DNA of 64,000 nt from Rhodospirillales bacterium. Its GTDB lineage: Bacteria; Pseudomonadota; Alphaproteobacteria; Rhodospirillales; Casp-alpha2. The notes under the pieces are model-generated. The model was not told the origin of the DNA, ran no database searches, and saw only the letters and a list, made by a program, of their open reading frames with translations. The number at the start of each line of letters is the position of its first letter. Position 1 is the stretch's first letter. The position numbers and the translations under genes were made by a program. The stretch spans positions 3,141-67,140 of the forward strand of contig DASWGT010000086.1 in NCBI GenBank assembly GCA_036393575.1, read 5' to 3'. This document shows positions 15,466 to 62,799 of this stretch, in pieces.

Positions 15466-15816
15466 TCAAAGGATACCGTAGCCACGAAGCGCCGCAAGGA
15501 CCATGAAAATCCCGACGGCACCGACGACGCCGGGGATCATGGCGCGCCGGCACAGCACGAACAACGCGAACCCGCAGCCGAGCGCCACCAGCCGGTCGAC
15601 CAGCGGCGTGTGCGCCAAGATACCGACCGGCATCAGCATGATGCGCGATATCAGTCCGGCCAGCATCCCGTAGGCGACGCAGGTGAACCACTGCGACAGC
15701 CGGCCGTTGGGCTTGATGCGGGCGGCGATGACGACACCGGTCGCCCGCCACACATAGGTGGCGAGGCTTACCATCGCCAGCAATCCCCACAGCGCCAGCT
15801 CGTGCGGCTCAGGCAT
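15466..15816 (-). CDS. azlD: AzlD family branched-chain amino acid transport protein
   Basis: A 116-aa hydrophobic protein from ATG 15816. Its start overlaps the azlC stop by 8 nt, the typical azlC-azlD arrangement. Confidence 0.7.
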   Translation of the reverse strand: MPEPHELALWGLLAMVSLATYVWRATGVVIAARIKPNGRLSQWFTCVAYGMLAGLISRIMLMPVGILAHTPLVDRLVALGCGFALFVLCRRAMIPGVVGAVGIFMVLAALRGYGIL

Positions 15817-16459
15817 CGGCGCCTCGCAAGCCGCGGTCGAGGTAGAACGCGGCAGTGCCGGCGATGATGCCGCAGAACGGCAATCCCCACTCCGGCGATA
15901 GCCAATGGGTAATCGGCCCCAGCACGGTGCCGATGATAAGGGCCAAAACGCCGTTGCGGGCGCGCACGCCGGCAAACAGGAACACGAAGTAGATCGGATT
16001 GAGGAAGATCAGGCTGACGGTGACGAAGAACGGCAACTCCCCGGCGAGATGATAGCCGGCCGCGGTGCCGATCACTCCGGCGGCGATGCAGGTTACCGAT
16101 AACCCGGTGAAGTACGGTCCGCGTTGGTCGATGGGCAACGACGGCCCGTTGCGCAGCGTCACCGCCCAGGTGTTGACCGACATCATGGCGACGAAGACGT
16201 AGCGCCACCGCCACGATGCCGGGTCGCCGCGGAACAGCGGCAGTAGCGACAGCGACATCGGGAAAAACCGCAGATTCGCCATGCTCGAGGCGAGCGCGAT
16301 GGCCAACAGCGGGGCGCCAACGGCGTAAAGTTCGGCCGCCGCCACCTGTCCCGGCAGGCCCCACACGGTAGCGGTCGACGTCACCGCGACGCCGATCGTG
16401 AAGCCGCTGTCGCGGGCCAGCGAACCCCAGCCAGTCATGCTGGCGGCGACTACGAACAC
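15809..16459 (-). CDS. azlC: AzlC family branched-chain amino acid permease component (start uncertain)
   Basis: A multi-TM protein with an AzlC-like core ([16 protein letters not shown]). Canonical start candidates are GTG 16459 and ATG 16438. AzlC-like sequence ([16 protein letters not shown]) appears to continue upstream to about 16570, where no ATG/GTG/TTG exists; the only candidate there is ATT 16570, preceded by AAGGA. Confidence 0.7.
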
Positions 16460-16691
16460 CGGCAGCCGGAACGCCTCGACGGCACCGCCGAGAAAGGCCC
16501 GCCAGCGATCGGCGAAGGCCCCGGGGGAAACGGGGGTGGTCGCCGGGGCGGGGGAGGGACGGTCGGTAATGGCGTATCCTTTCGCGCCGGCGGGAATACC
16601 GCCGGAAGCGACATTCTTGTCGAACCGGCGGATAAGCTTTTTAATCCGTCGGCGGCCGTCGCGCCACCCCCGGCGTGGTCTAGGAGACGAT

Positions 16692-17162
16692 ATGCCCGTT
16701 GAGCCAGAGAACAATGGTCCCGGCCGTGGCCGGACACTGGTCACCGGCGTCATCGGTGTCGACACCCACATCGTCGGCAACCGGATTCTCGGCATGGCGC
16801 TCGAGGAGGCCGGCTTCAAGGTGGTCGCCTTGGGGGCGCTGACGCCGGCCGAAGACTTCGTCAAGGCCGCCATCGAGACCGCCGCCGATGGCATCATGGT
16901 GTCGTCCCTGTACGGCCAGGGTGAGCTCGACTGCCGCGGCTTCCGCGCGCTGTGCGTCGAGGCCGGACTCGACGATATCCTACTCTACGTCGGTGGCAAC
17001 CTGGTGGTCGGCAAACAGGACTGGGTCGGCGTCGAGAAGCGCTTCCTGGATATGGGATTCGACCGCGCCTTTCCGCCCGGCACCCGCACCGCCGACGTGA
17101 TTGCGGCGCTCAGGCGCGACTTTGCCGCCCGCGCCGAGGGTCGGCAAAGGGCGGAGACATGA
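16692..17162 (+). CDS. glmS: methylaspartate (glutamate) mutase sigma subunit, B12-binding
   Basis: 156 aa from ATG 16692 after AGGAGA. The B12-binding signature DxHxxG is present as [21 protein letters not shown], followed by [11 protein letters not shown]. The small size is typical of GlmS/MutS. Confidence 0.85.
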
Positions 17163-18562
17163 CCGCGGCGGCACTGCTGATCGACTTCGGCTCGACCTTC
17201 ACCAAGCTGCGCGCCGTCGATCTGGAAGCCGCCCATGTCATCGGCAGCGGCCAGGGCCCATCGACGGTAACGACCGACGTCACGGAGGGATTGCATAAGG
17301 CGCTCGGCGATCTGGAGCGCCGCATCGGCTGGCTGCCCGACTTCAAGCATCGCCTGGCCTGCTCGTCGGCCGCCGGCGGCTTGCGCATGGTCACCGTCGG
17401 GCTGGTGCCGGAGCTGACCGCCGAGGCTGCCCGCCGCGCCGCCCTCGGCGCCGGCGCCAAGCTGACGGGGACCTTCGCCTACCGGCTGACCGAGGGCGAC
17501 ATGCACCGGATCGAGGGCATCGGGCCCGACATCATCCTACTCGCCGGCGGCACCGACGGCGGCAACCGTGAGGTGATCGTCGAAAATGCCAAACGGCTGG
17601 CGGCGAGTTCGCTCGCCTGTCCGGTGGTTGTGGCTGGCAACCGCGACGCCGCCGACGAGGCTGCATCGGCGCTCGCCCGAGCCGGCAAGCCGGTGACAGT
17701 CACCGGCAACGTGATGCCGGAATTCGGGCGCCTCGACGTGGAACCGGCGCGCGCCGCCATCCGACAGGTGTTCATCGACCGCATCGTCCACGCCAAGGGC
17801 ATCGATCGCGCCGCCGCGATGTTTGACGCGGTGCTGATGCCGACGCCGGCGGCGGTGCTGGAAGGCGCGCGGCTGCTTGCCGACGGCGTCAAGGGCAAGC
17901 CTGGCCTTGGGCCGCTGGTAGTGGTCGACGTCGGCGGCGCCACTACCGACGTGCACTCGGTCGCGGAAGGCGCACCGACCCGCGAAGGTGTAGTGCCGCA
18001 CGGCCTGCCAGAACCGGTGGTCAAGCGCACGGTGGAAGGCGATCTCGGCATGCGCATCAACGCCAAGACCATCACCGAAGCGGCGGGACTCGACGCGATC
18101 GCCGCTGCCGCCGACCTCGATCAGGCGCATGTCCGGGCGCTGCTCGACAAATTGACGGCGAACGTCGAGCGCTTGCCGCAAAGCGACGACGAGCGCCGTC
18201 TCGACCGAGCGTTGGCGGAAGCGGCGCTCCGCATCGCCATGACCCGCCACGCCGGCACCATCACCATCGTGCAGACGGTGACTGGTCCGATCAGCATCCA
18301 GACTGGCAAGGACCTGAGCGACATCAAGGCGCTGATTGGCACCGGCGGCGTGTTGGCGCACGGCGCCGGCGGGGCGGCGATGCTCAAGCGCTGCCTCGCC
18401 GATCCGGCCGAGCCACACACGCTCAGGCCGCGGGCGCCGGACCTTTATCTCGATAGCGATTACCTTCTGTTCGCCTGCGGGCTGCTGAAGGATAAGGAGC
18501 CCGAGGCCGCCTTGACGTTGGGTCTCAGGCACATGCATCCTGTTCGGAACAACGTCTCCTAG
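17159..18562 (+). CDS. glmL: glutamate mutase accessory/reactivase protein GlmL (MutL)
   Basis: 467 aa with an ATGA overlap with glmS. The N-terminus [15 protein letters not shown] and the later [13 protein letters not shown] are ASKHA/actin-fold phosphate motifs as in GlmL. Its position between the S and E subunits is as in clostridia. Confidence 0.8.
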
Positions 18563-18573
18563 AGGCTTGGAAA

Positions 18574-20079
18574 ATGGGAAAAGCCCTCGAACGCGAAGCC
18601 GCGACCCGGCCGCCAACCCTTTCGGCGGCAGAGATTCCGGCCGACGCGTTCGCGGACATGCGCAAGGCCAACCTCGCCCGCTGGCCGACCGGCGCCGAGG
18701 TCGACATCGACGACGCCGTCGCCTTCCACAAGGCGCTGCCCAAACATAAACAACTGGGTTGGGTGATGCGCCGCGCCGCTGCCGAGGGCCTCTGCCTGAC
18801 CCAACCGCGCGGCGGCTTCGGGACGCTTGAATTGCAATTGGAATTGATGCGGGCGCTCGACAACGACGGCCTCGCCGACATCGTGCCGACCACCACCGAC
18901 AGCTACACCCGCAATGAGCAGTGGAGCCGCGCCGCCGTCGGCGTCGAGGAATCGAAAAAGGCCGGCCGCTCGATGCTCAACGGCTTCCCGATGGTCAACT
19001 ACGGGCCGCGCCAGACCCGCAAGCTGATCGAAGCGATCTCGAAGCCGGCGATCGTGCTCAGTGGCACCTCGATGCCGAGGCTCACCTCGGAGGTCGGATT
19101 CGCCGCCGGATTTTCGGGCTATCTCGGCTCCGGCATCGCCTATACCACGTCCTACACCAAGGACGTTTCCATCGCCGATGGAATCCGCAACTACCAGTAC
19201 CTGGACCGGCTGGCGGCGCTCTATCAGGAGAAAGGCGTCGAGCTGCACCGCCGCCAGCCCGGCTTCCTCACCGGCACCAACGTTCCGCCGTGCATCGCCA
19301 TCATCACTTGCATTCTCGACGCGCTGCTCGCCGCCGGGCAAGGGGTGCGTAACTACGGCCTCGAGCTCGCCCAGACCCTGCACCTCGTCCAGGACGCGGC
19401 AGCGATAAAGGTATGCGGCGAACTGGCACAGGAATACTTGAAGGCGCAGGGATTCGAAGACGTGTTCACGCCGGTCACTTCGCTCCACTGGATGGGCGCC
19501 TGGCCACATGACGACGCGCAATCGGCCGCACTGGTCGCCTATGGCGGCACGCTGGCGGCGGTCGGCGGCGCCGTCAGCGTCACCACCAAGAGCACCCACG
19601 AGGCCTTCGGCATCCCGACGCCGCAGGCCAACGCCGAGGGATTGCGCACCACCCGCATGGCGATCTATCTCGCCCGTCACGTGCGCCTGGACGACCTGCC
19701 CGAGTACAAGTTCGAGGCCGATCTCATCCGCCGCGAGGTCAGGCCCATCGTCGACAAGGTGCTGGAGATGGGCGACGGCGACGTCGCGGTCGGCGCCGTC
19801 AACGCCTTCGAGGCCGGCGTCCTCGACATTCCGTGGTCGCCCAACCGCTTTTGCAGGAGCCGCGTCATGCCGGCCCGCGACGCCGACGGGTGTCTCCGCA
19901 TCTTCGATCCCGGCCTGATGCCGTTCCCGAAGGACGTGATGGCGGTACACGAGGAAAGGTTGAGAAAGCGCGCCGAGCGCGAAGGCGTCGCCTTCGATCG
20001 CGACCTTGCGGTGAAGAGCGTCTACGAGATTTCCGAACCGCTGCAGAAGTTGTTGCCGTTCCCGTGGGCGACGGCGTGA
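18574..20079 (+). CDS. glmE: methylaspartate (glutamate) mutase epsilon subunit
   Basis: 501 aa. It has a TIM-barrel mutase E-subunit-like sequence (QPRGGFGT, TTDSYTRNEQW, MLNGFPMVNYG). Its size and position after glmS-glmL match GlmE/MutE. Confidence 0.85.
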   Translation: MGKALEREAATRPPTLSAAEIPADAFADMRKANLARWPTGAEVDIDDAVAFHKALPKHKQLGWVMRRAAAEGLCLTQPRGGFGTLELQLELMRALDNDGLADIVPTTTDSYTRNEQWSRAAVGVEESKKAGRSMLNGFPMVNYGPRQTRKLIEAISKPAIVLSGTSMPRLTSEVGFAAGFSGYLGSGIAYTTSYTKDVSIADGIRNYQYLDRLAALYQEKGVELHRRQPGFLTGTNVPPCIAIITCILDALLAAGQGVRNYGLELAQTLHLVQDAAAIKVCGELAQEYLKAQGFEDVFTPVTSLHWMGAWPHDDAQSAALVAYGGTLAAVGGAVSVTTKSTHEAFGIPTPQANAEGLRTTRMAIYLARHVRLDDLPEYKFEADLIRREVRPIVDKVLEMGDGDVAVGAVNAFEAGVLDIPWSPNRFCRSRVMPARDADGCLRIFDPGLMPFPKDVMAVHEERLRKRAEREGVAFDRDLAVKSVYEISEPLQKLLPFPWATA

Positions 20080-20194: not shown

Positions 20195-21196
20195 ATGAAA
20201 CTCGTGAAGGCAATCATTGGCCTCATTTTTGGCGCCAGTCTGGCGATGCCGGCATTGACCGCCAATCTACCGGACAAGATGGAGAAGCCCGGGGGCTTCC
20301 CCGAACGGCCGCTGACCATGATCGTGCCTTATGGACCGGGCGGCGGCTCGGGCCAAGTGGCGCGGGCGATGATTCAGGGTATCAAAGATACGGTCGGCTT
20401 CGATCTCACGCCTGACTACAAACCGGGCGGCGGCGGCATGGTTGGGCTGAAGACTTACATGGCGGCGCCCGCCGACGGCTACACCGTGCTCCAGCACATC
20501 GACGACGCCACCAGCGGCTTCGCCGCCGGGCGCACCGACGTGAACCCGGCCAAGGACCTGATCCCGCTGGCGATCGCGCAGATCACGTTTTCGCAGATCT
20601 ACATCCGCGGCAACGAAACCCGGTTCAAGGACTGGAAGTCGTTCGTCGATTTTGCCAAGAAGGCCGGCGGCAAGGCGACCATCGCCAACGTCGCCGGCGA
20701 GGGCTCGATGGAACGGGTGAACATGAACCTGATCGCCGAGCATTTCGGCATCAAGGTGCAGCAGGTCAGCTTCGACAAGCCGGCGCCCCGCTACGCCGCC
20801 CTCAAGGGCGGGCAGGTGGACGCGCTGTTCGAGCAGCCGGGCGACGTGAAAGGCTTCCTCGAAAGTGGCGACTTTAAGCCGATCCTCAGCTTGCTGAAGG
20901 ATCGGCCGAAGGCCTTTGCCGACGTGCCGTCGATGACCGACGTCGGCCTTGCCTTCAACCCGCTGATGCGGTTCCGCGGCTTCTACGTGCACAAGAACAC
21001 GCCGCCGGAGCGCGTCAAGTATCTGCAATGGGCGTTCCAGAAGGGCTACAACTCGGAGAGCTTCCTCAAGTTCAATAAGAGCAAGTTCATGGACCTTATC
21101 CCTAGCTTCCGCGACACCGAAGGCGCCATCAAGCTGATCAACGAGACCATGGCCGTCTACCGGGCGACCTACAAGAAGATGGGGCTGATCAAGTAA
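20195..21196 (+). CDS. tctC: tripartite tricarboxylate transporter (TTT) substrate-binding protein, TctC/Bug family
   Basis: 333 aa from ATG 20195 after GGGAGG, with signal peptide MKLVKAIIGLIFGASLAMPALTA. It has the Bug-family pattern FPERPLTMIVPYGPGGGSGQVAR. Confidence 0.85.
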   Translation: MKLVKAIIGLIFGASLAMPALTANLPDKMEKPGGFPERPLTMIVPYGPGGGSGQVARAMIQGIKDTVGFDLTPDYKPGGGGMVGLKTYMAAPADGYTVLQHIDDATSGFAAGRTDVNPAKDLIPLAIAQITFSQIYIRGNETRFKDWKSFVDFAKKAGGKATIANVAGEGSMERVNMNLIAEHFGIKVQQVSFDKPAPRYAALKGGQVDALFEQPGDVKGFLESGDFKPILSLLKDRPKAFADVPSMTDVGLAFNPLMRFRGFYVHKNTPPERVKYLQWAFQKGYNSESFLKFNKSKFMDLIPSFRDTEGAIKLINETMAVYRATYKKMGLIK

Positions 21197-21274
21197 GCCC
21201 GTCGTTCCTTACGTAAGCCGATGATAGGCTCCGGCGGGAAACCCCGCCGGAGCCGCCACGACAGGGGGTCCGTG

Positions 21275-21817
21275 ATGGGCAAACTGACCGGCGGCCAGTG
21301 GTTCGAGATCGTCTTCTGGACCGGCTTCGCCACCGCCGCCTACGTTCTCAGCTTCCAATTCGACCGCGATGTGCAGATGTACCGCTTCGGCGCGGCCGCG
21401 TGGCCGCGCGCGGTGATCCTCTTGATCCTGGCCGCGGCGGTCGGGCAGTTGGTCGCCGATGTGCGCGCGCGAAAGGCGGCCGCCGCCGCTGGCGCGCTCG
21501 AAGACGGCTACTTCCGCAGGATGGCCGACGAGCACGGCGCCGCCTTCTTCGTGCGCATGGGGATCACGCTGGCGTTGCCGCTCGCCTACGCCGCGCTGCT
21601 TCAGAACACCGGCTATTACTTCACCACACCGTTTTTCCTGGCCGCTTACCTCTATATCACCGGCGAACACCGCATTAAGTGGCTGATCATTGTGCCGCTT
21701 GCCATTTACGTGGTCATCACTTTCATCTTTACCCGCCTTCTCTACGTCGGCCTACCGGTCGGCTACTGGCCCGGGTTTTACGACTTCGGCAACTGGATCG
21801 TCGTGCTGATCCGCTGA
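21275..21817 (+). CDS. tctB: TTT small membrane subunit, TctB family
   Basis: A 180-aa 4-TM protein located between tctC and tctA. Confidence 0.7.
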   Translation: MGKLTGGQWFEIVFWTGFATAAYVLSFQFDRDVQMYRFGAAAWPRAVILLILAAAVGQLVADVRARKAAAAAGALEDGYFRRMADEHGAAFFVRMGITLALPLAYAALLQNTGYYFTTPFFLAAYLYITGEHRIKWLIIVPLAIYVVITFIFTRLLYVGLPVGYWPGFYDFGNWIVVLIR

Positions 21818-21836: not shown

Positions 21837-23330
21837 ATGGAACAGTTCATCGCCGGTACGCTGACCCTGGTCAGCAGCCCGCTCAGCATTCTGATATTTT
21901 TCAGTGGGTTGTTCGGCGGGCTTTTGTTCGGTGCCATCCCCGGCATCAACATGCTGACGCTGGCGGCCATCTTCCTGCCGTTCTCCGGCCTGCTCAGCGC
22001 CGCCGACGCCATCATGTTCTATGCAGTGCTGTATTGCTCGGGCACTTACGGCGGCGCGGTAACGGCGATCCTATTCAATATCCCGGGCTCGCCCGAAAAC
22101 GCGCCGACCGCCTTCGACGGCTATCCGATGGCGCAACAAGGCTTGGCCGGCAAGGCCATCGGCGCGGCGGTACTGTGTTCGTCGTTCGGCGGCACCTGTT
22201 CGGCGCTGTTGATGATCACGGCGACGCCTCTCATTGCCGACTGGGCGGTCCGCAACTTCGGACCGCCCGAGATCTTCTCCCTCGTCTTCTTCGGCATCGC
22301 GGTGGCGTCCTCGGTCGGCGCCAGGACGTTGTGGAAGGGCTGGCTGTCGGTCGGATTCGGCCTGATGATCGCCACCATCGGCCTCGATCCGGTGGCGGGT
22401 CTGCAGCGCTACGACTTTGGCTATGCCTACCTGCTCGCTGGCATCCACTTCATCCCCACCATCCTCGGTTTCTTCGCCGTTTCCGAAGTTTTCGTGCAGG
22501 CGGAACGGCGGGTACGCGGAAAGTTCGACATGCCCAAGTTCAGTACCCACTTTCCCAGCTTGGCCGAGTTTTGGCAGCTGAAGGTCGCGGTAGCGCGGTC
22601 GGTGTTCGTGGGGTTCTTCGCCGGCATCCTTCCCGGCATCGGCGCGACGCTGGCGGCGTTCATGAGCTACAACGAGGCGGTGCGTTGGTCGAAGACGCCG
22701 GAAAAATTCGGCAAGGGCCAGCTCGAAGGTGTCGTCGCCTCGGAAACCGCCAACAACGCCGCCACTGGCGCAGCCATGATACCGCTCCTGGCCTTGGGCC
22801 TGCCCGGCGGCGCGTTGACGGCGATGATGGTCGGCGTTTTCCAGATGCACGACATGGAGCCAGGGCCGCTAGTGTTCGTCAACTCCAGCGAACTGGTGTG
22901 GGTGGTGTTCGCGGCCATGTTCTTTGCCAACATCTGCATCCTCGGCCTTGGTTACGTAGAGACCAAAACGGTTCTGCACCTACTGCGCATCCCGTTTCAG
23001 TTCCTGGCGCCGGCCATCCTGCTTTTGGCCACCGTCGGTGCCTACGCGGTGCGCAACCTGGCGATGGACGTGGGGGTGATGTTTGTAGCCGGGATCATCG
23101 CCTACCTGATGCGCCGGTCCGGCTATTCGGTGGCCGGCATCGTGCTCGGGCTGATCCTCGGCGAGATCGGCGAGCAGAACTTCGCCCAGGCGATGCAGAT
23201 CGTCGGCTACGACTACGCCGCCTTGGTCACCCGGCCGATCGTCGCCGTCCTGCTGCTCGCCGGCATCGCCACCATCGGCACCAACATCTACCGTGAACTC
23301 CGCGGCGGGCGGAAAGGGGTCGAGGTCTAG
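21837..23330 (+). CDS. tctA: TTT large permease subunit, TctA family
   Basis: A 497-aa polytopic membrane protein. It has TctA motifs GAIPGINMLTLAAIFLP, NIPGSPENAPTAFDGYPMAQQG and ETANNAATGAAMIPLLALGLPG. Confidence 0.9.
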   Translation: MEQFIAGTLTLVSSPLSILIFFSGLFGGLLFGAIPGINMLTLAAIFLPFSGLLSAADAIMFYAVLYCSGTYGGAVTAILFNIPGSPENAPTAFDGYPMAQQGLAGKAIGAAVLCSSFGGTCSALLMITATPLIADWAVRNFGPPEIFSLVFFGIAVASSVGARTLWKGWLSVGFGLMIATIGLDPVAGLQRYDFGYAYLLAGIHFIPTILGFFAVSEVFVQAERRVRGKFDMPKFSTHFPSLAEFWQLKVAVARSVFVGFFAGILPGIGATLAAFMSYNEAVRWSKTPEKFGKGQLEGVVASETANNAATGAAMIPLLALGLPGGALTAMMVGVFQMHDMEPGPLVFVNSSELVWVVFAAMFFANICILGLGYVETKTVLHLLRIPFQFLAPAILLLATVGAYAVRNLAMDVGVMFVAGIIAYLMRRSGYSVAGIVLGLILGEIGEQNFAQAMQIVGYDYAALVTRPIVAVLLLAGIATIGTNIYRELRGGRKGVEV

Positions 23331-23383: not shown

Positions 23384-23411
23384 TTGCCAATCGACGGGCC
23401 GAGCCTATAAT
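23384..23411 (+). promoter_or_regulatory. candidate sigma70-type promoter for the aldehyde dehydrogenase/CoA ligase operon
   Basis: TTGCCA (23384-23389), then 16 nt, then TATAAT (23406-23411). It lies 25 nt upstream of ATG 23437, with GGGAGG as the SD. Pattern match only. Confidence 0.35.
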
Positions 23412-23436: not shown

Positions 23437-24870
23437 ATGAGCCCGCCGGCACCCGCCAGGGCCGACCGCCAGCCGGGCGGAGAAATCGCCATCGTCCGCG
23501 AGCTCGTCAAGAGGGCGCGCGCCGCCATGCGCGCGATCGCCTCGGCCGACCAGGCACGGGTGGACGAGGCGGTGACGGCGCTGGCGTGGTCGATCTACGA
23601 GCCGAAGCGCGCCCGAGCCCTCGCCGAAATGGCGGTCAAGGACACCGGCCTCGGCAACGTCGAAAGCAAGATCGTCAAAAATCAGCGCAAAACCTTCGGC
23701 TGCCTCCGCGACCTGTTGCGGGTGAAGACCCGTGGCATCATCGATGAAGACAAGGCGAAGGGTATCGTCAAGTACGTTAAGCCAGTCGGCGTCGTCGCCG
23801 CGGTCGTGCCCTCCACCAACCCGGCGGCGACGCCGGTCAACAAGGCGATGATGGCCGTCAAGGGCGGCAACGCAGTGATCATCGCGCCGAGCCCGTCGGG
23901 GCAGGCGACGACGGTGCGCACGGTCGAATTGATGCGCGACGAACTCGCCAAGATCGGGCTTCCCGTTGACCTGGTGCAGGTGCTGCCGCCGCCGGTGGAC
24001 AAGGCGCTGACCCAGGCGCTTATGGAAGCCTGTGACCTGGTGGTCGTCACCGGCTCGCAGAACAACGTTCGCCGGGCGTATTCCTCGGGCACGCCGGCGA
24101 TCGGCGTCGGCGCCGGCAACGTGCCGGTAATCGTTGATTCCTCGGCCGACCTCGACGACGCTGCCCAAAAGATCGCCGCCTCCAAGATCTTCGACAACGC
24201 CACCTCGTGCTCGTCGGAGAACTCGGTGGTCATCCTCGCCGACGTCTACAACGCCGCCTTGAAGGCTCTCGAAGGGGCCGGCGGCTACCGGGCGTCGGCG
24301 GCGGAGAAGGAGAAGATCAGATCGACGCTGTGGACGGACGGGCACCTGAACCGTCGAGTCATCGCCAAGGACGCGGCCGTGTTCGCCCGCGAGGCGAAGC
24401 TGGCGCCGGCGGCGGCGAAGGCCAGGTTCTTCCTAGTCGAGGACTCGGACCCAGGCCCCGGCACGCCGTTCGCCGACGAGAAGCTGTCGCTAGTGCTCAG
24501 CGTCTACAAGGCGGACGACCTCGGCGACGCGATCCGCCAGGTCAACGCAATCCTCGCGGTGTGCGGCAAGGGTCACTCGGTCGGCATCCACACCCAGGAC
24601 CTCGGCCACGCCCGGCGGCTGGCTGCCGAACTCGACGTGGTCCGCGTGCTGGTCAACCAGGCGCATACCTTCGGCAACGGCGGCAGCTTCGACAATGGCC
24701 TCAATTTCACGCTGTCCATGGGCTGTGGCACCTGGGCCGGCAACTCGATCTCCGAGAATCTCAATTACCGCCACTTCATCAACGTCACCCACCTGGTGAC
24801 CGTGATCCCCGAAGACAAGCCGAGCGAAAGGGACCTGTTCGGCGCCTACTGGGACCGCTACGGAAAATGA
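23437..24870 (+). CDS. CoA-acylating aldehyde dehydrogenase (SucD/EutE/PduP-like)
   Basis: 477 aa. Motifs are VVPSTNPAATPVNKAMMAVKGGNAVIIAPSP and the catalytic-Cys block FDNATSCSSENSVVI, which resembles FDNGTICASEQS of clostridial acylating succinate-semialdehyde dehydrogenase as I remember it. Confidence 0.8.
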   Translation: MSPPAPARADRQPGGEIAIVRELVKRARAAMRAIASADQARVDEAVTALAWSIYEPKRARALAEMAVKDTGLGNVESKIVKNQRKTFGCLRDLLRVKTRGIIDEDKAKGIVKYVKPVGVVAAVVPSTNPAATPVNKAMMAVKGGNAVIIAPSPSGQATTVRTVELMRDELAKIGLPVDLVQVLPPPVDKALTQALMEACDLVVVTGSQNNVRRAYSSGTPAIGVGAGNVPVIVDSSADLDDAAQKIAASKIFDNATSCSSENSVVILADVYNAALKALEGAGGYRASAAEKEKIRSTLWTDGHLNRRVIAKDAAVFAREAKLAPAAAKARFFLVEDSDPGPGTPFADEKLSLVLSVYKADDLGDAIRQVNAILAVCGKGHSVGIHTQDLGHARRLAAELDVVRVLVNQAHTFGNGGSFDNGLNFTLSMGCGTWAGNSISENLNYRHFINVTHLVTVIPEDKPSERDLFGAYWDRYGK

Positions 24871-26009
24871 ACTTCCAGGAACACGCGGCGAAGCCGCTAC
24901 TCGCCGCGGCCGGCATCGCCGTGCCCGCCTCGCAGCCCGCGCGGACGCCCGAGGCAGCCGCCGCCGCGCAAAAGGCTTTGGGGCCGGTGGTGGTCAAGGC
25001 GCAAGTGCCGACCGGCAAGCGCGGCAAGGCCGGCGGCATCAGAAAGGCCGATACGCCGGAACAAACCCGTGCCGCCGCCGAGGCCATCCTCGGCATGACC
25101 ATCGACGGCCACAGGGTCGAGAGCGTGCTGGTCGAGAGCCGCGCCGACATCAAGCGTGAGTTCTACGCCGCCGTCATGAACGACCCGGCATCGAAGGGGC
25201 CGCTGGTGCTGTTCTCGACCCTCGGCGGCATGGACATCGAGGAGGCCGCGGCCAAGGATGCGAGCGCCATCCGCCGCGCCGCGGTCGACATCCGCGACGG
25301 TTTCGACGCCAAGGCAGCGCGAGCGATGCTGAAGGGCCTCGACCTCGGCGGCAAGGACGCCCAAGTCGCCGACGTGCTGGTCAGGCTCTACCAGGTCTAC
25401 CGCGACAACGACACCGAGCTGATCGAGATCAACCCGCTCGCCGTCACCGGCGACGGCCGGATGGTGGCGCTCGACTGCAAGTTCGTCATGGACGATTCGG
25501 CCGTCAAGCGCCATGAGGAGCTGGCCAAGAAGGGAACGCCGGAGAAGGTCACCGGATTGGAAGCGAAAGGCCGCGCGCTGGGCCTGCGCTACATCGAGCT
25601 CGATGGCGACGTGGGTGTACTCGCCAACGGCGCCGGATTGACCATGACCACCATGGACGTTGTCTGCCATCACGGCGGCAAGCCCGCCAACTTCCTTGAG
25701 ATCGGCGGCGAGGCCTATACCCAAGCCAAGCCGGCGCTCGAGCTGGTGCTCGCCAATCCCAACGTCAGGAGCCTAGTCATCAACTTTTGCGGCGCCTTCG
25801 CCCGCACCGACGTGATGACCGAAGGCGTGCTGGCGGCGCTCGACGCCATCAAGCCGAAGCTGCCGATCCACTGGTCGGTGCACGGCACCGGCGACGTCGA
25901 GGCCCGCGCCATGCTGAAAGAGAAACTCGGCGTGATGCCGTTCGCGACCATGGACCAGGCATGTGCCGCCGCCGTCGAATCCGCACGGAAGGCCGGGGGT
26001 CACCGATGA
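24867..26009 (+). CDS. ADP-forming acyl-CoA ligase beta subunit (SucC/MtkA-like, ATP-grasp)
   Basis: 380 aa from ATG 24867 with an ATGA overlap. The N-terminus MNFQEHAAKPLLAAAGIAVP parallels SucC MNLHEYQAK. Other motifs are VVKAQVPTGKRGKAGGI, LIEINPLAV and NGAGLTMTTMD. The 600-aa track ORF is an upstream out-of-gene extension. Confidence 0.85.
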   Translation: MNFQEHAAKPLLAAAGIAVPASQPARTPEAAAAAQKALGPVVVKAQVPTGKRGKAGGIRKADTPEQTRAAAEAILGMTIDGHRVESVLVESRADIKREFYAAVMNDPASKGPLVLFSTLGGMDIEEAAAKDASAIRRAAVDIRDGFDAKAARAMLKGLDLGGKDAQVADVLVRLYQVYRDNDTELIEINPLAVTGDGRMVALDCKFVMDDSAVKRHEELAKKGTPEKVTGLEAKGRALGLRYIELDGDVGVLANGAGLTMTTMDVVCHHGGKPANFLEIGGEAYTQAKPALELVLANPNVRSLVINFCGAFARTDVMTEGVLAALDAIKPKLPIHWSVHGTGDVEARAMLKEKLGVMPFATMDQACAAAVESARKAGGHR

Positions 26010-26902
26010 TCGTCCGCGGCAGCGACCGGGTGCTGATCCAGGGCATCACCGGCAAGCAGGGCACTTTCTGGACCGAACGCATGCAGGAATATGGCACCAA
26101 CGTCGTCGGCGGCGTCAACCCGAACAAGGCTGGCACCGTCCACTGCGCCGTGCCGGTCTACGCCAGCGCCAAGGAAGCTAAGAAAGCCCTGAACGACGAG
26201 GGCGGCTTCGACGTCTCGGTGCTGTTCATCCCACCGCTCGGCGTCAAGGAGGCGGCGCTCGATGCCATCGCGGCCGGCGCCAAGGGGTTGGTGGTGCTGA
26301 CCGAGCACATCCCGGTCCACGACGTCATGTGGTTCCTGGCTGCCGCCCGCGACGCGGGCTGCCGAGTGCTCGGCCCCAACACCGCTGGTTCCGTCACGCC
26401 GGGCGAGTGCTTCTGCGGCTTCATGCCGGCGTTCAACGACAACATCTTCAAGCCCGGCCGCGTCGGCGTCATCTCGCGCTCCGGCAGCCTCGGCACGCTC
26501 ATCTGCCTGAACCTGGCGCAGGCCGGGTTCGGTCAATCGGCGTTCATCGGCATCGGCGGCGACCCGATCATCGGCACCACCACCCGCGACGCGCTGGAGA
26601 CGCTCGATGTCGATTCGCGCACCGACGCCGTCGTCATCGTCGGCGAGATCGGCGGCGCCATGGAGGAGGCGGCGGCCGAATACGCAGGCACCATGAAAAA
26701 GCCGATCGCCGCCTTCATCGCCGGCGGCGCCGCGCCCAAGGGCAAGCGCATGGGCCACGCCGGCGCCATTGTCATGGGCGACAGGGGAACGTATGACTCC
26801 AAGGCGAGGGCGCTGACGGCGGCCGGCGTGACGGTGGTCGCGACGCCGTCCGCCATCGGCACCTGGGCAAGGGAAGCGATTGGGGGCCGGCGCGCGTCAT
26901 GA
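26006..26902 (+). CDS. ADP-forming acyl-CoA ligase alpha subunit (SucD-like, CoA-binding)
   Basis: 298 aa with an ATGA overlap. Motifs are [24 protein letters not shown] and SRSGSLG. The phosphohistidine loop MGHAGAIV is present. Confidence 0.85.
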
Positions 26903-27900
26903 CCATGCAGGCGGTCCAAATCCGGGAATACGGCGGCTCCGCGCAACTGGTCCTCGCCGAAGTGCCGGTGCCGAAGCCGGGCAAGGGCGAGGCGCTGGTC
27001 GAGATCAGCCACGCCGGCGTCAACTTCATCGACGTCTACATGCGCCAGGGCGTCTACCGGAACTCCGAGACCTACCGCAACGAGCCGCCGTTCACCCCCG
27101 GCATGGAAGGCGGCGGCATCGTCGCCGACGTCGGCCCCGGCGTGCATGGGCTCAATGTCGGCGACCGCGTTGCCTACTGCTTGGTGCTCGGCAGCTACGC
27201 CCGCTACGCGGCCGTGCCTGCCTGGCGGCTGGCCAAGGTTCCCGACGACGTGCTGATGCCGGTGGCGGTGACGCTGATGCTGCAAGGCTCGACCGCCCAT
27301 TACTTGAGCCAATCCCTGTTCGACCTGCGAGCGGGGATGACTTGCCTGGTGCACGCCGGCGCCGGTGGCGTCGGCCAGCTCCTCACCCAGATCGCCCGGA
27401 TGAAAGGGGCGCGCGTGATCTCGACCGTCGGCTCGGCCGAAAAGGCGGCGATTTCGCGGGCGCTCGGTGCCGAGCCGATTCTCTATCGCGATGAGGACTT
27501 CGCGGCGCGCGTCCTCGAAATGACCGCGGGCGATGGTGTCCACGTGGTCTACGACGGCGTCGGCCAGGCCACCTTCACGGGCTCGCTGAAGGCCCTTCGC
27601 CGGCGCGGCACGCTCGCCTTGTTCGGCGGCGCCTCGGGGGCGGTGAAATCGGTCAACCCGCTGGATCTGGCCGAGGCCGGCTCGGTGTTCCTGACCCGGC
27701 CGCACCTGTGGGACTACACGGCGACGGCGGAAGAGATCGACCGCCGCGCCGGCGACCTGTTCAAATGGGTCGCCGAAGGCAGGCTGAAGGTCACCATCGA
27801 CCGCGAGTTCCCGCTCGGCATGGCCAAGGCCGCCCACGACGTTCTCGAAAGCCGGCAAAGCAAGGGCAAGATCATCCTCAACGTCGAGGAAACGGCCTAA
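26899..27900 (+). CDS. quinone oxidoreductase-like medium-chain dehydrogenase/reductase (zinc-free MDR)
   Basis: 333 aa with an ATGA overlap. The pattern is Qor-like: [24 protein letters not shown], with the nucleotide-binding motif [11 protein letters not shown]. Confidence 0.85.
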
Positions 27901-29222
27901 AGTCCCGAAATCAGCACCCAGGCGATCGCCAATGGCGCCACGTAGCGGCAGATGACGCGCCACGCCGGCGCCAGACGGAACAACTTGCCGTCCCGGTGCG
28001 CCGTCTCGGCCATGATCCGCGGGCTGACCACCCAGCCGACGAACAGCGCGATCAGGACGCCGCCCAGCAGCAGCATGACGTTGGAGGCGGCGTAGTCCAT
28101 CAGCTCGAAGAACCCTTTGCCGAACAGCTTCAATTCCTCCCACGCGCCGAACGACAGCGACGATGGGACGCCCAGGAGGAAGATCGCCGCGCCGGCCCAA
28201 TACGCCGCCTTCGCCCGCGTCCAGCCCTTCTCGTCGACCAGGAAGGCGACGACCACCTCCAGCAGCGAGAACGCCGACGTCAACGCCGCCACCGCCAGCA
28301 GCACGAAGAACAGCGTCCCGAAGCCGGCGCCCCACGGCATCTTGGCGAACACCGCCGGCAGCGTGATGAAGCTGAGGCCTGGCCCGGCGCCGGGATCGAA
28401 GCCGAAGGCGAACACCGCCGGCAGGATCATGAACCCGGCCAGGATCGCGATCAGGGTGTCGAGCGACGTCACCCACAGAGCTGAGCCGGCCAGATGCGTC
28501 TGCCGCGACAGGTAGGATCCGAGCGTGATCATCGAGCCCATGCCGAGCGACAGCGAGAAGAACGCCTGGCCGAGCGCCGCCGTCACCATCGCCCCGGTGA
28601 GCTTGGAAAAATCGGGATTGAGGAAGAACTTGATGCCGGCCATGGCGCCCAGCAGGGTCAGCGAGCGCGCGCACAGAACGACGACGATCACGAACAACAG
28701 CGGCATCAGCAGCCGGCACGCGCGCTCGATACCCCGCGCCACGATGGCGATCGTCATTGCCATGAACGCGAGGTGATACAGAATCGGCTGCAGCGGGTCG
28801 GCGACGAAGGCCCCGAACGCGCCGCCGAACGCCTTGGCGTCCGCCAGGCTCAGCATGCCGGCCGCGGTCTTCACCGCGTAGGCGATGGTCCAGCCGCCGA
28901 CGACGCTGTAAAACGACAGGATGACGCAGCTGCCGACGACGCCCAAGTAGCCGACGCCGGTCCAAGCGCCGCCCTTCAGATGCTTGAAGGCGCCGACCGG
29001 GTTTTTCTCGCCGGCGCGACCGATGGCGAATTCGGCCAGCATGACGCTGATGCCGATGGTGAACACGAATCCTAGATAGACGATCAGAAACACGGCGCCG
29101 CCGTGGGCGCCCGCCAGGTACGGGAACTTCCAGACGTTGCCGAGCCCGACGGCGGAACCGGCCGCCGCCAGGATGAACCCCAGCCTCGATGCGAAACTGC
29201 CGCGCCCGCCGGCCATCGCCAT
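27897..29222 (-). CDS. sodium-dependent transporter, neurotransmitter:sodium symporter (NSS/SNF) family
   Basis: 441 aa. The NSS signature is [27 protein letters not shown]. It has about 11-12 TM segments. It is convergent with the MDR gene and overlaps it by 4 nt. Confidence 0.9.
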
Positions 29223-29243: not shown

Positions 29244-29999
29244 TCAGGAGAATACGGCGCGCCTGATAAGGTTCAAACCGATGATGACGAGGGCCGCCAG
29301 CATCACCTTGCGGAAGGTCTCCTGCGGGATTCGATCGCGGACCAGCTCGCCGATCCAGATGCCGATCATGCCGGGGATGCAGGCATAGGCAGACAGCGGC
29401 GCCGTCGTGGCATTCAACACCCCGTTCTGCCAATAGGCGATGGTCAGCGGGATGGCGCCGGCGAACCAGATCAGCCCAACGGTGCGGATCCAGGTGTCCT
29501 TGTCCAGCTTCAGCATCACCAGATACATCATCATCGGCGGCCCCCAGATGGTGGAAAGGCCGCCGAGAATTCCCCCGAGCCCGCCGGCCAGCGGCCCCGC
29601 CCATCGCTCGGCCGAAGGGTTGAGCGGATGCACCCTGGGCCGGATCAGGTTCGAGGCCGAGAACACGACGACGCAAACGCCGAGTACCGCGAACAGGACG
29701 TTGGTGTCGAGCGCCACCACCAGCCGCGCGCCGATGAACAGGCAGACCAGGAAGGTCAGCGTCATCAGCCAGAACCTTCTCAGCGGCTGCATGATGTTGC
29801 CGGCGCGCGCCGCCTGCCACAGATTGGTGACCAGGATCGGCAACACTAGGATCGCCAGCGTCACCTTCGGATCGACGAAGTTGAGGATGAACGCCATGGC
29901 GACGATGGGAAGCCCGATGCCGGTGATGCCCTTGACGGTGCCGCCAAGAACCATCGACAAGGTGATGACGATGAAAGTGAGCGCGTCGTAGCCGAACAT
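29244..29999 (-). CDS. TauE/SafE (DUF81) family anion permease
   Basis: A 251-aa polytopic membrane protein with a two-fold internal repeat: GGTVKGITGIGLPIV near the N-terminus and GGLSTIWGPP in the second half. Confidence 0.8.
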   Translation of the reverse strand: MFGYDALTFIVITLSMVLGGTVKGITGIGLPIVAMAFILNFVDPKVTLAILVLPILVTNLWQAARAGNIMQPLRRFWLMTLTFLVCLFIGARLVVALDTNVLFAVLGVCVVVFSASNLIRPRVHPLNPSAERWAGPLAGGLGGILGGLSTIWGPPMMMYLVMLKLDKDTWIRTVGLIWFAGAIPLTIAYWQNGVLNATTAPLSAYACIPGMIGIWIGELVRDRIPQETFRKVMLAALVIIGLNLIRRAVFS

Positions 30000-30005
30000 G
30001 CCGAG

Positions 30006-31094
30006 TCAGGCCCCGACCTGTTCGGCGGTGAAGCGATGGCTATCGGCGGCGAGCCGGGCGAGCGCGGCGTCGTCGATCAACGCCGGGAGGCCTGCTTTCA
30101 CCACCATCGCGCCCCGCTCGACCCCGATCGGGTTCCTGAATACCCGCGCCTTCGGCTTCAGGAACCCGTTCATCTCGCCCGCGTTATCGATCAGGGTACG
30201 GGCGACACACGCCTCCATCCAGCAGCCGATGTCGCTGGCGACGCCGTTGCCGAGCACCGGCGTCATGCCGCGCTCGCGGATCAGCCGGAGGCCGGCGGCG
30301 AGCGAGTCCAAGCCGCCCGCCTTCATCAGCTTGAGCTTGATGAATTTGGCGCAGCCGAGATCGGCGGCGCGCTTGATGTCGTCGGGACCGAAGATCGATT
30401 CGTCCATCATCATCGGCACCGTCGAAACCTTGGCGACGGCTTCCGCGGCCTTCCAGTCGCCGGCGTCGCACGGCTGCTCGAACAGCTCGATATTGTCGGG
30501 CTTGAGCGCGCCGGCGAAGCGAACGGCGTCGTCCTGCCCGAAGCCCTGGTTGCCGTCGATGCGGATGCGCGCCCGCCCGGCGAGCGCGTCCTGAATGAAG
30601 CGGACACGCCGGGCATCGGCGTTGGCGTCGAAGCCGACCTTGACCTTCAGGGTCCGATAGCCTTCGGCCAGCCGCGCCTCGATCTCGGCGGCGATTTCCT
30701 TCTCCTCGGTCTCGTTGAGGATGGCGAGCAGCGGCACCCGCGCCGGCTCGCGCACTTCCAGGAGCGGGTTGCCCTCCAGCATCTCGGCCGCCGTCATCAG
30801 GGCGGTGGCCATGAATGGCTGGTGGTGCGCGACGAGCCCAATCAGGTCCTTGGCGTCCGGCGTTTCCATTCCCGCTACGCGACGGGCCAATTGAGCGGCG
30901 GCGGGCCAGCTCTCGGCGATGGTTTCCGGCGTGTAGCCGGTGAGGATGGTGGCCTCGCCGAAGCCGCGCCGGCCGTCGCTATCCTCCGCCACCGCCAGGA
31001 TGGTGTCGAACGCCGTCACCTCGCCGAGCGCCAGGTGATAGGGACGATGCAGCGGCAGTTCGAGGCGGTACAGGGTGATGGAGGCAATGCGCAT
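30006..31094 (-). CDS. enolase-superfamily enzyme, mandelate racemase/muconate lactonizing (MLE/dipeptide-epimerase-like) subgroup
   Basis: 362 aa from ATG 31094. It has the KxK motif (LKVKVG), metal ligands in RIDGNQGF, LFEQP and MMDES, and a second catalytic Lys region KLKLMKAGG. Confidence 0.85.
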   Translation of the reverse strand: MRIASITLYRLELPLHRPYHLALGEVTAFDTILAVAEDSDGRRGFGEATILTGYTPETIAESWPAAAQLARRVAGMETPDAKDLIGLVAHHQPFMATALMTAAEMLEGNPLLEVREPARVPLLAILNETEEKEIAAEIEARLAEGYRTLKVKVGFDANADARRVRFIQDALAGRARIRIDGNQGFGQDDAVRFAGALKPDNIELFEQPCDAGDWKAAEAVAKVSTVPMMMDESIFGPDDIKRAADLGCAKFIKLKLMKAGGLDSLAAGLRLIRERGMTPVLGNGVASDIGCWMEACVARTLIDNAGEMNGFLKPKARVFRNPIGVERGAMVVKAGLPALIDDAALARLAADSHRFTAEQVGA

Positions 31095-31240: not shown

Positions 31241-31969
31241 ATGGCCGGGACAGCTTCCGAGACCCTTTCCGTTTCGATCTGGCGCGGCGGCGCCGCCGGC
31301 CGGTTCGTCGCCTACCAGGTACCGCGTCGCGAGAGCCAGACCGTCCTCGATGTGGTCACCTTCGTGCAGCGCCGGCTCGATGCGAGCCTTAGTTACCGCT
31401 TCGCCTGCCGGGTCGGCATGTGTGGCAGTTGCGCGATGACGGTCAACGGCAAGCCGCGTTGGACCTGCCGCACCCACGTTTCGAAGGTCGCCAAGGACGG
31501 CCGGCTGGAGATCGCGCCCTTGCGCAACCTGCCGGTGGTCAAGGACCTGTCGGTGGACATGCGGACGTTCTTCGACAAGTGGACGGAAGCCGGCGGCGCG
31601 TTTGCGCCGACGGCGACCCGCGCCGACGGATTTGCCACGATCCCGCCCACCGACGCGAAGCGCCGCAACGCCGACGGCGGCATCGAGTGCATCGGCTGCG
31701 GCGTGTGCTATTCGGCCTGCGACGTGGTGGCGTGGAATCCGAAATACCTCGGGCCGGCCGCCCTCAACCGCGCATGGACGCTGGTCAACGACGCCCGCGA
31801 TGGCGCCGGCGCGGGAAGGCTGCTGAAGGTAGCCGGCGACGCCGGCTGCCACGCTTGCCATTCCCACGAGGCGTGCCGCGAGCATTGCCCGAAGCATCTC
31901 AACCCAACCGCCGCCATCGCCTCCCTCAAACGCGCCGTCGCCGTCGCCGCGCTGAAGGGAAGCCTGTGA
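31241..31969 (+). CDS. succinate dehydrogenase/fumarate reductase iron-sulfur subunit-like protein
   Basis: 242 aa. The cluster motifs are the 2Fe-2S motif CRVGMCGSCAM, the 4Fe-4S motif CIGCGVCYSAC, and the third-cluster motif CHACHSHEACREHCPKHLNP (compare CPKGLNP in SdhB). Confidence 0.85.
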   Translation: MAGTASETLSVSIWRGGAAGRFVAYQVPRRESQTVLDVVTFVQRRLDASLSYRFACRVGMCGSCAMTVNGKPRWTCRTHVSKVAKDGRLEIAPLRNLPVVKDLSVDMRTFFDKWTEAGGAFAPTATRADGFATIPPTDAKRRNADGGIECIGCGVCYSACDVVAWNPKYLGPAALNRAWTLVNDARDGAGAGRLLKVAGDAGCHACHSHEACREHCPKHLNPTAAIASLKRAVAVAALKGSL

Positions 31970-32319
31970 GCGCCGCCCGCGTCGAGACCTGGCTGTGGCT
32001 CGCTCAACGCGGCAGTGCCGCGGTGCTCGCTGTCGCCGTCGCCGTCCACCTCGCCGGCATCATCTTTGCGGTGCAGGGCGGGCTGACGGCTGCCGAGATC
32101 GCCGGTCGCGTCGGCGGCAGCACGGCGTGGGCGGCGTTCTACGGCGTGTTCGTCGTCGCCGCCACCGTGCACGCGCCGATCGGCATCCGCACGGTGCTCT
32201 CGGAAATGACCGCGTTGCCGCCGTTTTCGGTCAATGCCGTCGCGGCGCTGTTCGCGGCGATGCTGCTGGTTTCGGGCTTCATCGCCGTCGCCGCCGTCTA
32301 CCAGCTGGGGGCGGCATGA
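31966..32319 (+). CDS. small membrane anchor subunit (SdhD-like) of the Sdh-like complex
   Basis: 117 aa with a GTG start overlapping the upstream stop (GTGA). It has three hydrophobic helices with His residues (AVHLAGIIF, TVHAPIG). Confidence 0.6.
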   Translation: MSAARVETWLWLAQRGSAAVLAVAVAVHLAGIIFAVQGGLTAAEIAGRVGGSTAWAAFYGVFVVAATVHAPIGIRTVLSEMTALPPFSVNAVAALFAAMLLVSGFIAVAAVYQLGAA

Positions 32320-32660
32320 GGGCGGCGGCGCACCGCAACCACGCGGCGTGGTGGGCGTTCGCGCTGCACCGGCTGTCGGGCGTGCTACTGGCGCTGTTTT
32401 TGCCGGTGCATTTCTACGTGCTGGCGTCCGCCATCGACGGCGCCGCCCGCCTCGACGGCTTTTTGCGCTGGACCGAGCAGCCGCCGGTCAAATTCGCGGA
32501 AGCCGCGCTGATCCTGCTTTTGGCGGCGCACCTGACCGGCGGGCTGCGATTGCTCTTTCTCGAGTTCGTCGGCTGGCGCGACGGCCAGAAGTCCCTGGTC
32601 GCCGTCGCCTCCGGCGTCGCCGTCGCCCTGGCGCTGCTGTTCCTGGTCAATGCCGCCTGA
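32316..32660 (+). CDS. membrane anchor/cytochrome b-like subunit (SdhC-like)
   Basis: 114 aa with an ATGA overlap. It has an SdhC-like HRxSG motif (ALHRLSGVLLALFLPVHF) and three TM helices. Confidence 0.65.
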   Translation: MRAAAHRNHAAWWAFALHRLSGVLLALFLPVHFYVLASAIDGAARLDGFLRWTEQPPVKFAEAALILLLAAHLTGGLRLLFLEFVGWRDGQKSLVAVASGVAVALALLFLVNAA

Positions 32661-33393: not shown

Positions 33394-33461
33394 CCTGAGG
33401 CCTGGAAGCCGTTGGCATTGGCGACGGCGGTGCTTATCTTGTAGGGACAGGGAAGGATGCC

Positions 33462-34337: not shown

Positions 34338-34341
34338 CGCG

Positions 34342-48544: not shown

Positions 48545-48553
48545 CGCGCGGCT

Positions 48554-49078: not shown

Positions 49079-49097
49079 GGCGTTGCGGCCGCATCCG

Positions 49098-62684: not shown

Positions 62685-62799
62685 CGCTCTCCCCGTTCGC
62701 GGATCGCCGCCGTCATCGTGCCCAAGCGGGCCAGCGTTTACAAGCGCCGGAGGCGGTTCTAGGGTGGCTGCCGTCGGGCGCAGGGACGTGGACTCGGGC

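Follow-up and report, generated by a model that had tools for sequence, protein, structure and literature searches.

A putative adenosylcobalamin-dependent mutase with a non-glutamate pocket, paired with an enolase-superfamily enzyme among sulfonate genes of Rhodospirillales

The stretch of DNA studied here, hereafter the window, covers 64,000 nucleotides from a Rhodospirillales bacterium (assembly GCA_036393575.1, contig DASWGT010000086.1, positions 3,141 to 67,140) and carries three genes, glmS, glmL and glmE, that resemble those of the B12-dependent glutamate mutase. We consider it probable (about 0.6) that they encode an adenosylcobalamin (AdoCbl) radical mutase belonging to a distinct, non-glutamate subfamily and acting on an anionic, probably sulfonated, acid. 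This reading is drawn from the identities of the genes, the substitutions found in the substrate pocket, the pairing of the mutase with an enolase-superfamily enzyme of the MLE subgroup (named ENOL below) and the co-occurrence with sulfonate genes. A preliminary description of the same DNA had taken the three genes for a glutamate mutase without an adjacent methylaspartate ammonia-lyase (MAL) and had asked what becomes of the 3-methylaspartate produced.

The completeness and translational coupling of the glmS-glmL-glmE set, already described at that stage, are borne out by the coordinates, the cobalamin motif, the overlap of start and stop codons and the family scores, which all agree (Table 1). 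All three open reading frames are intact, and their products score above the cut-offs of the NCBIfam equivalog models for the S, L and E components of methylaspartate mutase. The GlmS-like sigma subunit carries the sequence GVDTHIVG, a DxHxxG B12-binding motif of the base-off/His-on type, the epsilon subunit matches both PF06368 and TIGR01503, and a GlmL reactivase accompanies them. The ATGA at 17159-17162, read directly from the sequence, joins the start of glmL to the stop of glmS. The gene order around the mutase, with divergent azlCD before it and tctCBA after it, was confirmed as well. The genome also encodes a PduO-type adenosyltransferase and has a cobalamin riboswitch ahead of cobN (1672 bits), which makes a supply of AdoCbl plausible.

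The pocket of the GlmE-like protein departs from that of glutamate mutase. The numbering used here is that of Clostridium cochlearium GlmE (1CB7/1CCW chain B), to which the alignment is ungapped in the active-site region (384 bits over residues 25-485 of 1CB7_B, about 39% identity). In the clostridial enzyme, we take Arg66, Arg100 and Arg149 to hold the two carboxylates of the substrate and Glu171 to contact its amino group. The protein of the window reads R66, R100, L149, S150, Y170, L171, R214, W297, K326 and E330 in this region. Arg66, Arg100, Tyr177, Tyr181, Lys326 and Glu330 are thus kept, whereas six positions are changed (Arg149Leu, His150Ser, Asn170Tyr, Glu171Leu, Glu214Arg and Phe297Trp). 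The arginine claw Arg66/Arg100/Arg149 of glutamate mutase is broken and its Glu171 is gone, whereas the adenosyl-ribose contacts Lys326 and Glu330 are in place; of about 120 family representatives, 109 and 112, respectively, retain these residues. Two acidic residues are lost, and by alignment the pocket wall would be bulkier and more hydrophobic and the site more cationic, which fits a substrate devoid of an ammonium group.

These substitutions are not a peculiarity of one genome. Eighty loci from other genomes, whose GlmE proteins are 73-97% identical, form a clade with the locus of the window, and all 81 members share R66, R100, L149, S/T150, Y170, L171, R214 and W297, although they come from Alpha-, Beta- and Gammaproteobacteria, Nitrospira and others. 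The preliminary description had made the substrate-binding residues of GlmE a test of its own proposal; by alignment these residues are missing, with R149L, H150S and E171L invariant in the clade (position 150 being Ser or Thr), so that the formation of 3-methylaspartate from glutamate is unsupported. The altered pocket would speak for another substrate, not for an ordinary enzyme, and the protein is probably not a glutamate mutase. With the glutamate-binding residues replaced, there is probably no methylaspartate whose fate would need explaining.

A survey of the GlmE family, in which 1.84 billion representatives were searched and about 120 full-length representatives of 50%-identity clusters were compared, places this clade apart. 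Within it, identity to the query does not fall under 61%, while for all other GlmE proteins it does not exceed 43%. The canonical signature RRQxRHxEYYEFKE is invariant in 34 of the representatives, which form a near-monophyletic clade excluding the protein of the window. Three of these canonical representatives were looked up and have glutamate-related neighbourhoods: one lies in a glmS-glmL-glmE-MAL cluster, one next to a glutamate racemase and one in an adenylation/methyltransferase cluster. Across the family, Arg100, Lys326 and Glu330 are near-universal, while positions 66, 149, 150, 170, 171 and 214 vary. One reading is that the site taking up the substrate's propionate end and the adenosyl group is fixed, whereas the site that receives the migrating group is variable. 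Eleven representatives have a basic residue at position 214, and because 10 of these 11 have neither Arg nor Lys at 149, Arg214 may replace Arg149 in a different geometry. Members of the clade are found in Rhodospirillales, Hyphomicrobiales, Betaproteobacteria including Pelomicrobium, Acidiferrobacterales and metagenome-assembled genomes (MAGs) labelled Nitrospira, the closest one being in a groundwater Rhodospirillales MAG.

Beyond the 34 canonical representatives, family PF06368 comprises many small subfamilies with other pockets, and most clusters are non-canonical. The loci of further GlmE-like subfamilies are set among acyl-CoA or TTT genes. For example, one locus (L123) holds two GlmE-like genes together with genes for GlmS, MutL, an ADP-forming acyl-CoA synthetase, enoyl-CoA hydratases and acyl-CoA dehydrogenases.

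The second line of evidence concerns the partner of the mutase. Searches for MAL (PF07476, PF05034 and TIGR01502, with E-values up to 10) gave no match in the window or anywhere else in the assembly, a negative that is weak when taken alone, the assembly being a MAG of 271 contigs that is 75.6% complete. The searches for MAL and for the mutase were therefore extended to the genomes of 60 relatives. TIGR01503 scores above its cut-off in 15 of them; the fifteenth match (G044) is weaker, contains an in-frame TGA and lies in a genome without Xsc and SauS, and it is not counted among the 14 carriers. Canonical MAL is missing from 12 of these 14 mutase-positive relatives, nine of the 12 being 97-100% complete. 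As such nearly complete carriers also have no MAL, its absence is a property of the clade and not an assembly gap. It was present in two relatives (G008 and G034), both times unlinked to the mutase and in G034 400 kb away from it; with the own genome negative too, the idea of a MAL hidden elsewhere was rejected. Thus the whole-genome check upholds the earlier statements that MAL is missing and that the situation is not ordinary.

The MAL operon of G034 (L149, G034:C1:436500-450500) encodes a family-5 solute-binding protein, peptide/opine- or Opp-type permeases and ATPases, a MmgE/PrpD-family protein, an M24 peptidase and an arylmalonate-decarboxylase or Asp/Glu-racemase-like protein. It looks like an operon for the breakdown of N-substituted aspartate or aminopolycarboxylates and not like a partner of the mutase.

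It had also been stated that no protein with the features of MAL occurs in the 64 kb. This holds for the MAL domains, but a member of the same superfamily is present: ENOL, a lyase candidate encoded 10 kb downstream of the mutase genes, which had gone unmentioned. ENOL shows the hallmarks of the MLE subgroup, namely KxK on strand 2 (K150/K152), D/E/D metal ligands (D180/E206/D231) and a lysine on strand 6 (K253/K255). These residues align with those of 1JPM and are at least 95% conserved in 44 orthologues. When tested for the domains of MAL, ENOL matched neither MAAL_N and MAAL_C nor TIGR01502. Every NCBIfam equivalog score lies far under its cut-off, including those of the dipeptide epimerase models (36 bits against 343 for NF011708; 77 bits against 500 for NF041118).

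After glmL and glmS, ENOL is the most frequent neighbour of the mutase (44 of the 81 loci). At 21 loci of other lineages its gene stands directly upstream of glmS/glmL on the same strand, often preceded by tctCBA, and nine of 17 ENOL-glmS junctions show a 4-nt overlap. The ENOL of the window has a median identity of 56% to these operon-coupled copies, equal to its identity to the other copies, and is for this reason the same orthologue. Among the 14 mutase-positive relatives, 12 encode an orthologue with an identity of 53% or more; the one of G011, a 100% complete genome, contains an in-frame TGA and lies on another contig than glmE (G011:C11:6687-7775), and may be a pseudogene. The pairing of mutase and ENOL is old. 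In the nearest sister subfamily (P0011), whose GlmE is 43% identical and carries Leu149 and Ile171, the order MR_MLE-glmS-glmL-glmE-MFS-tctBAC-Aldedh is found, and the coupled MR_MLE protein shares 39-40% identity with ENOL, while another MR_MLE protein of that locus shares 22%.

The third line of evidence is the setting of the mutase among sulfonate genes (Table 1). Downstream of glmE stand a TTT transporter of the SauXYZ type, an acylating sulfoacetaldehyde dehydrogenase (SauS) and a two-subunit ADP-forming ligase whose scores fall just under the SucC and SucD cut-offs (348.7 against 370 and 321.5 against 336). The SauS equivalog, the adjacent ligase and TTT and the presence of Xsc in the genome together make up, by gene content, a sulfoacetate module. 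The genome has two copies of xsc, a full one on contig C53 and one that runs off the window; xsc scores 959 bits against a cut-off of 676. The genes xsc and pta complete the desulfonation of sulfoacetaldehyde, as far as the genes alone are concerned. For TctCBA, the preliminary description had pointed to amino-dicarboxylates such as glutamate or aspartate, which Bug-family proteins bind in Bordetella; because SauS and a SauCD-like ligase follow, an importer of sulfo-carboxylates of the SauXYZ type seems more likely from the gene content. The ATG of tctC lies behind a GGGAGG ribosome-binding site, and no terminator-like site was found between glmE and tctC. The genes sauS, sauC, sauD and qor are chained through ATGA overlaps, and a promoter-like site directly upstream of sauS (23384-23411, TTGCCA-16-TATAAT, an 11/12 match to the sigma-70 consensus) suggests that glmSLE-tctCBA and sauS-sauCD-qor may be separate transcription units.

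Table 1. Features of the window that bear on the mutase and its setting
Feature	Position	Strand	Remarks
azlC/azlD	~15466-16500	-	divergent from glmS
glmS-like, B12-binding sigma subunit	16692-17162	+	156 aa; PF02310; NF002612 195 bits (cut-off 110)
glmL/mutL-like reactivase	17159-18562	+	PF13941 552 bits; NF040745 589 bits (cut-off 475)
glmE-like, epsilon catalytic subunit	18574-20079	+	501 aa; PF06368; TIGR01503 448 bits (cut-off 390)
TTT transporter, SauXYZ-like	tctC 20195-21196; tctB 21221-21817; tctA 21837-23330	+	
SauS, acylating sulfoacetaldehyde dehydrogenase	23437-24870	+	NF047625 780.6 bits (cut-off 600)
SauC-like and SauD-like	24867-26009; 26006-26902	+	two-subunit ADP-forming acid-CoA ligase; ATGA-coupled
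QOR-type medium-chain reductase	26899-27900	+	ATGA-coupled to sauD
NSS-family Na+ symporter	27897-29222	-	
TauE/SafE anion exporter (TauE1)	29244-29999	-	
ENOL, MLE-subgroup enolase-superfamily enzyme	30006-31094	-	PF13378 MR_MLE_C; frame open to 31178, likely start MRIASIT
Sdh/Frd-like operon	31241-36680	+	Fe-S subunit, anchors, TauE2 (32650-33393), hydro-lyase, flavoprotein (to 36680)
Two-subunit class I fumarase-type hydro-lyase	33462-34953	+	inside the Sdh-like operon
pta	62764-63786	+	
Second xsc copy, 3' part	~63847 to window end (64000)	-	runs off the window

Co-occurrence was counted over 61 genomes, the 60 relatives and the source genome. All 36 members of the same family carry Xsc. 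SauS occurs in 32 of the 61 genomes, the source genome included, and the Sdh-like flavoprotein in 30 of them. The relatives with SauS are almost the same as those with the Sdh-like flavoprotein (27 shared, four and two unique), which suggests that the sulfoacetate module and the Sdh-like/fumarase-like operon form a single pathway, maybe one for C3 sulfonates. SauS, Xsc and the Sdh-like flavoprotein are found in each of the 14 mutase-positive relatives. In addition to the 81 loci of the clade, those of 15 relatives were compared. In eight loci sauS starts -16 to 74 nt after glmE, and betaproteobacterial MAGs have, beside a TTT-QOR-ENOL-glmSLE unit, a SauT-type AMP-forming ligase in place of SauCD. 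As the mutase occurs only with the SauS, Xsc and Sdh-like genes, while the Sau and Sdh-like modules also exist alone, the mutase-ENOL unit behaves as an accessory module nested within sulfonate degraders. QOR and TauE1 were ruled out as mutase-specific partners, both accompanying SauS-SauCD in mutase-less genomes.

Elsewhere in the window, a type II citrate/2-methylcitrate synthase is encoded in the 61542-64000 region (minus strand) and a second TTT set in the 45669-50294 region (minus strand; tctC 49098-50294, tctA 47048-48544), with a divergent gene for a MmgE/PrpD-family protein (45669-47108). For the idea of a methylcitrate route fed by propionyl phosphate from 2-sulfopropanal, this leaves a citrate synthase of type II and a weak PrpD-family protein, at 46 bits on the single PrpD model matched.

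From the above, we infer the direction of the reaction, its substrate and the reaction of ENOL as follows. The half of the pocket that would hold the propionate (acrylate) end and the adenosyl group is kept (Arg100, Arg66, Tyr181, Lys326 and Glu330), whereas the half for the glycyl end of glutamate appears rebuilt, the ammonium acceptor having gone. The mutase would catalyse a 1,2-shift of the type X-CH2-CH2-COO- to CH3-CH(X)-COO-, where X is anionic and amine-free and most likely a sulfonate-bearing group. One candidate is the conversion of 3-sulfopropanoate to 2-sulfopropanoate, in which the sulfonate would migrate and the acrylate intermediate be retained. As 2-sulfopropanoate is methyl-sulfoacetate, SauCD, SauS and Xsc could desulfonate it, ENOL would be a racemase, and the nesting of the mutase among sulfonate genes would be explained. 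Another candidate is the conversion of 4-sulfobutanoate or of 2-sulfoglutarate (a 2-sulfo-dicarboxylate) to a beta-sulfo acid, from which ENOL would eliminate sulfite. A non-sulfonated acid such as 2-hydroxyglutarate is a candidate alongside these sulfonates. ENOL, in the classical place of MAL, would take the alpha-carboxylate proton of the branched product and either racemise it or eliminate a beta leaving group; with sulfite as this group, its role would parallel that of MAL with ammonia. The TTT system would import the acid and TauE export sulfite, while SauCD, SauS, Xsc, Pta and the Sdh-like/fumarase-like operon would carry out the remaining sulfonate catabolism. The specific proposal that this is a first AdoCbl radical mutase on an organosulfonate, which would shift the sulfonate or a sulfonate-bearing group along a propionate backbone before ENOL or SauCD/SauS/Xsc removes sulfite, is tentative, and we give it somewhat less than an even chance.

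Several points weigh against a sulfonate-directed mutase partnered by ENOL. The proteins pass the NCBIfam equivalog cut-offs, so that annotation pipelines name them glutamate mutase. The roles given to Arg149 and Glu171 are carried over from structural and mutagenesis work on the C. cochlearium enzyme, and residue 214 would line the pocket as judged from the sequence. The link with sulfonates is one of association, and we know of no AdoCbl mutase in which a sulfonate or sulfomethyl group migrates. Many mutase-less genomes have SauS-SauCD (accompanied or not by QOR, TauE and TTT) and the Sdh-like modules on their own. Furthermore, one relative (G018, 97% complete) and one sub-clade have the mutase without ENOL nearby, and a mutase-less genome (G033) keeps ENOL beside the Sdh-like operon; for these two reasons ENOL may serve more than one module. 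Neighbours of the mutase in loci without ENOL include VOC proteins, a PRISE-like reductase, a carboxylase and a luciferase-like monooxygenase.

The same observations bear on other explanations. The mutase could act on a non-sulfonated, amine-free C5 dicarboxylate, turning 2-hydroxyglutarate into 3-methylmalate or using 2-methyleneglutarate, with ENOL as a dehydratase or isomerase and the sulfonate genes as mere neighbours on a catabolic island. Clostridial glutamate mutase slowly turns L-2-hydroxyglutarate into 3-methylmalate, and the nearest known type of reaction is that of 2-methyleneglutarate mutase. The locus of the sister subfamily, with its TTT and aldehyde dehydrogenase genes but neither TauE nor Sau genes, agrees with such a substrate, as does the occurrence of the Sau and Sdh-like modules alone in many genomes. 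We nevertheless regard it as unlikely, given that SauS, Xsc and the Sdh-like flavoprotein accompany the mutase in 14 of 14 relatives and that the mutase-ENOL unit lies beside SauS with either type of CoA-ligase in unrelated lineages. Moreover, simple dehydrogenases normally handle 2-hydroxyglutarate, and the loss of Arg149 would be unexpected if the substrate kept its alpha-carboxylate.

That the enzyme is still a glutamate mutase, with ENOL as a non-orthologous MAL and mesaconate passing to the fumarase-type hydro-lyase (as mesaconase) and the Sdh-like enzyme, appears quite improbable. The equivalog scores over the cut-offs speak for it, and MAL itself belongs to the enolase superfamily, ENOL occupying its place beside the mutase. 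The two-subunit class I fumarase-type enzyme 13 kb downstream could also suit this route, since class I fumarases can act as mesaconases (PMC4682846). However, Glu171 and Arg149, invariant in the 34 canonical representatives, are both Leu in 81 of 81 clade members, and Glu214Arg would make the pocket more positive, as suits an ammonium-free substrate. Nor has ENOL any similarity to MAL beyond the fold (E = 0.25), and the genes are nested in SauS/Xsc genomes, not in glutamate-catabolic contexts.

Finally, it is scarcely credible that 3-methylaspartate is made and then exported, transaminated along the old 2-oxobutyrate/isoleucine route, for which azlCD would be the exporter, or incorporated as a building block: azlCD is indeed divergent from glmS, and canonical GlmS-GlmE fusions exist in adenylation and methyltransferase clusters, but the pocket is non-canonical, azlCD adjoins the mutase only in Rhodospirillales loci and not in those of other lineages, and no NRPS, PKS or aminotransferase gene is conserved beside the mutase at the 81 loci. 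The isoleucine route via methyloxaloacetate was discarded on the lack of the amine-binding Glu and the restriction of azlCD adjacency to one order, and the natural-product building block on the lack of NRPS/PKS genes nearby in the window.

To our knowledge, only a handful of AdoCbl carbon-skeleton mutases are known, and radical enzymology would gain from a new class of substrate, especially if this were a sulfonate. In the literature, no paper was found that joins glutamate mutase or AdoCbl with sulfoacetate, sulfonates, the enolase superfamily or an MLE-type partner. If the proposed reaction is true, it would provide an aerobic, B12-dependent route for sulfonates without a described aerobic pathway. 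3-Sulfopropionate and similar C3 sulfonates are fermentation end products (PMC11489063), and no description of an aerobic route for them was found in the literature, so that the reading could fill a gap in the sulfur cycle. Meanwhile, naming by equivalogs would lead to glutamate fermentation or the methylaspartate cycle being wrongly inferred in many environmental Proteobacteria and Nitrospira. The GlmE-like family as a whole, with non-canonical pockets in most of its 50%-identity clusters, holds many unassigned activities.

Compared with known systems, the SauXYZ-SauS-SauCD sulfoacetate set characterised in Bilophila wadsworthia, like SauS/SauT in Cupriavidus necator (PMC10413351), offers the closest counterpart of the setting. 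The TTT, SauS and the two-subunit ADP-forming ligase stand in the same order as in the Bilophila module, with Xsc and Pta in the genome here. A related pair, HpfX/HpfYZ, acts on 3-sulfopropionate (PMC11489063). In contrast to the published sulfoacetate pathway, in which they have no role, a B12 mutase, an ENOL-type enzyme and QOR are attached here and in several other lineages.

As regards the partner, ENOL shares with MAL the enolase-superfamily barrel, the Mg2+ ligands and the place adjoining the mutase genes, and differs from it by the domain matches and BLASTP value given above and by belonging to the two-lysine MLE subgroup. Among solved structures, the L-Ala-D/L-Glu epimerase YkfB and other MLE-subgroup enzymes (1JPM/1TKK and 3RIT, 86 bits) come closest to it. 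The KxK motif, the D/E/D ligands and the second catalytic Lys of the YkfB type align with those of ENOL, at an identity of only about 25%. Dipeptide epimerases carry a DxD ammonium-binding motif, presumably D321/D323 in 1JPM, where ENOL reads ExN (E-M-N).

Among mutases, 2-methyleneglutarate mutase from the nicotinate fermentation of Eubacterium barkeri is an AdoCbl carbon-skeleton mutase for a free, amine-free C5 dicarboxylate with a GlmL-like reactivase nearby; the window holds nothing like a nicotinate pathway. The glutamate mutase of C. cochlearium and C. tetanomorphum (EC 5.4.99.1; 1CCW, 1CB7, 1I9C) has the same S-L-E three-gene architecture, DxHxxG motif and PF06368 barrel. Its context is glutamate fermentation with MAL, and canonical mutases cluster with MAL and mesaconase (PMC4682846), whereas the context here is sulfonate catabolism with an MLE-type enolase partner. 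In the same way, the coupling to MAL or glutamate genes seen in canonical representatives is absent from the mutase described here. The latter is thus an uncharacterised, widespread subfamily of a known enzyme family, in which the partner and the metabolic setting are new.

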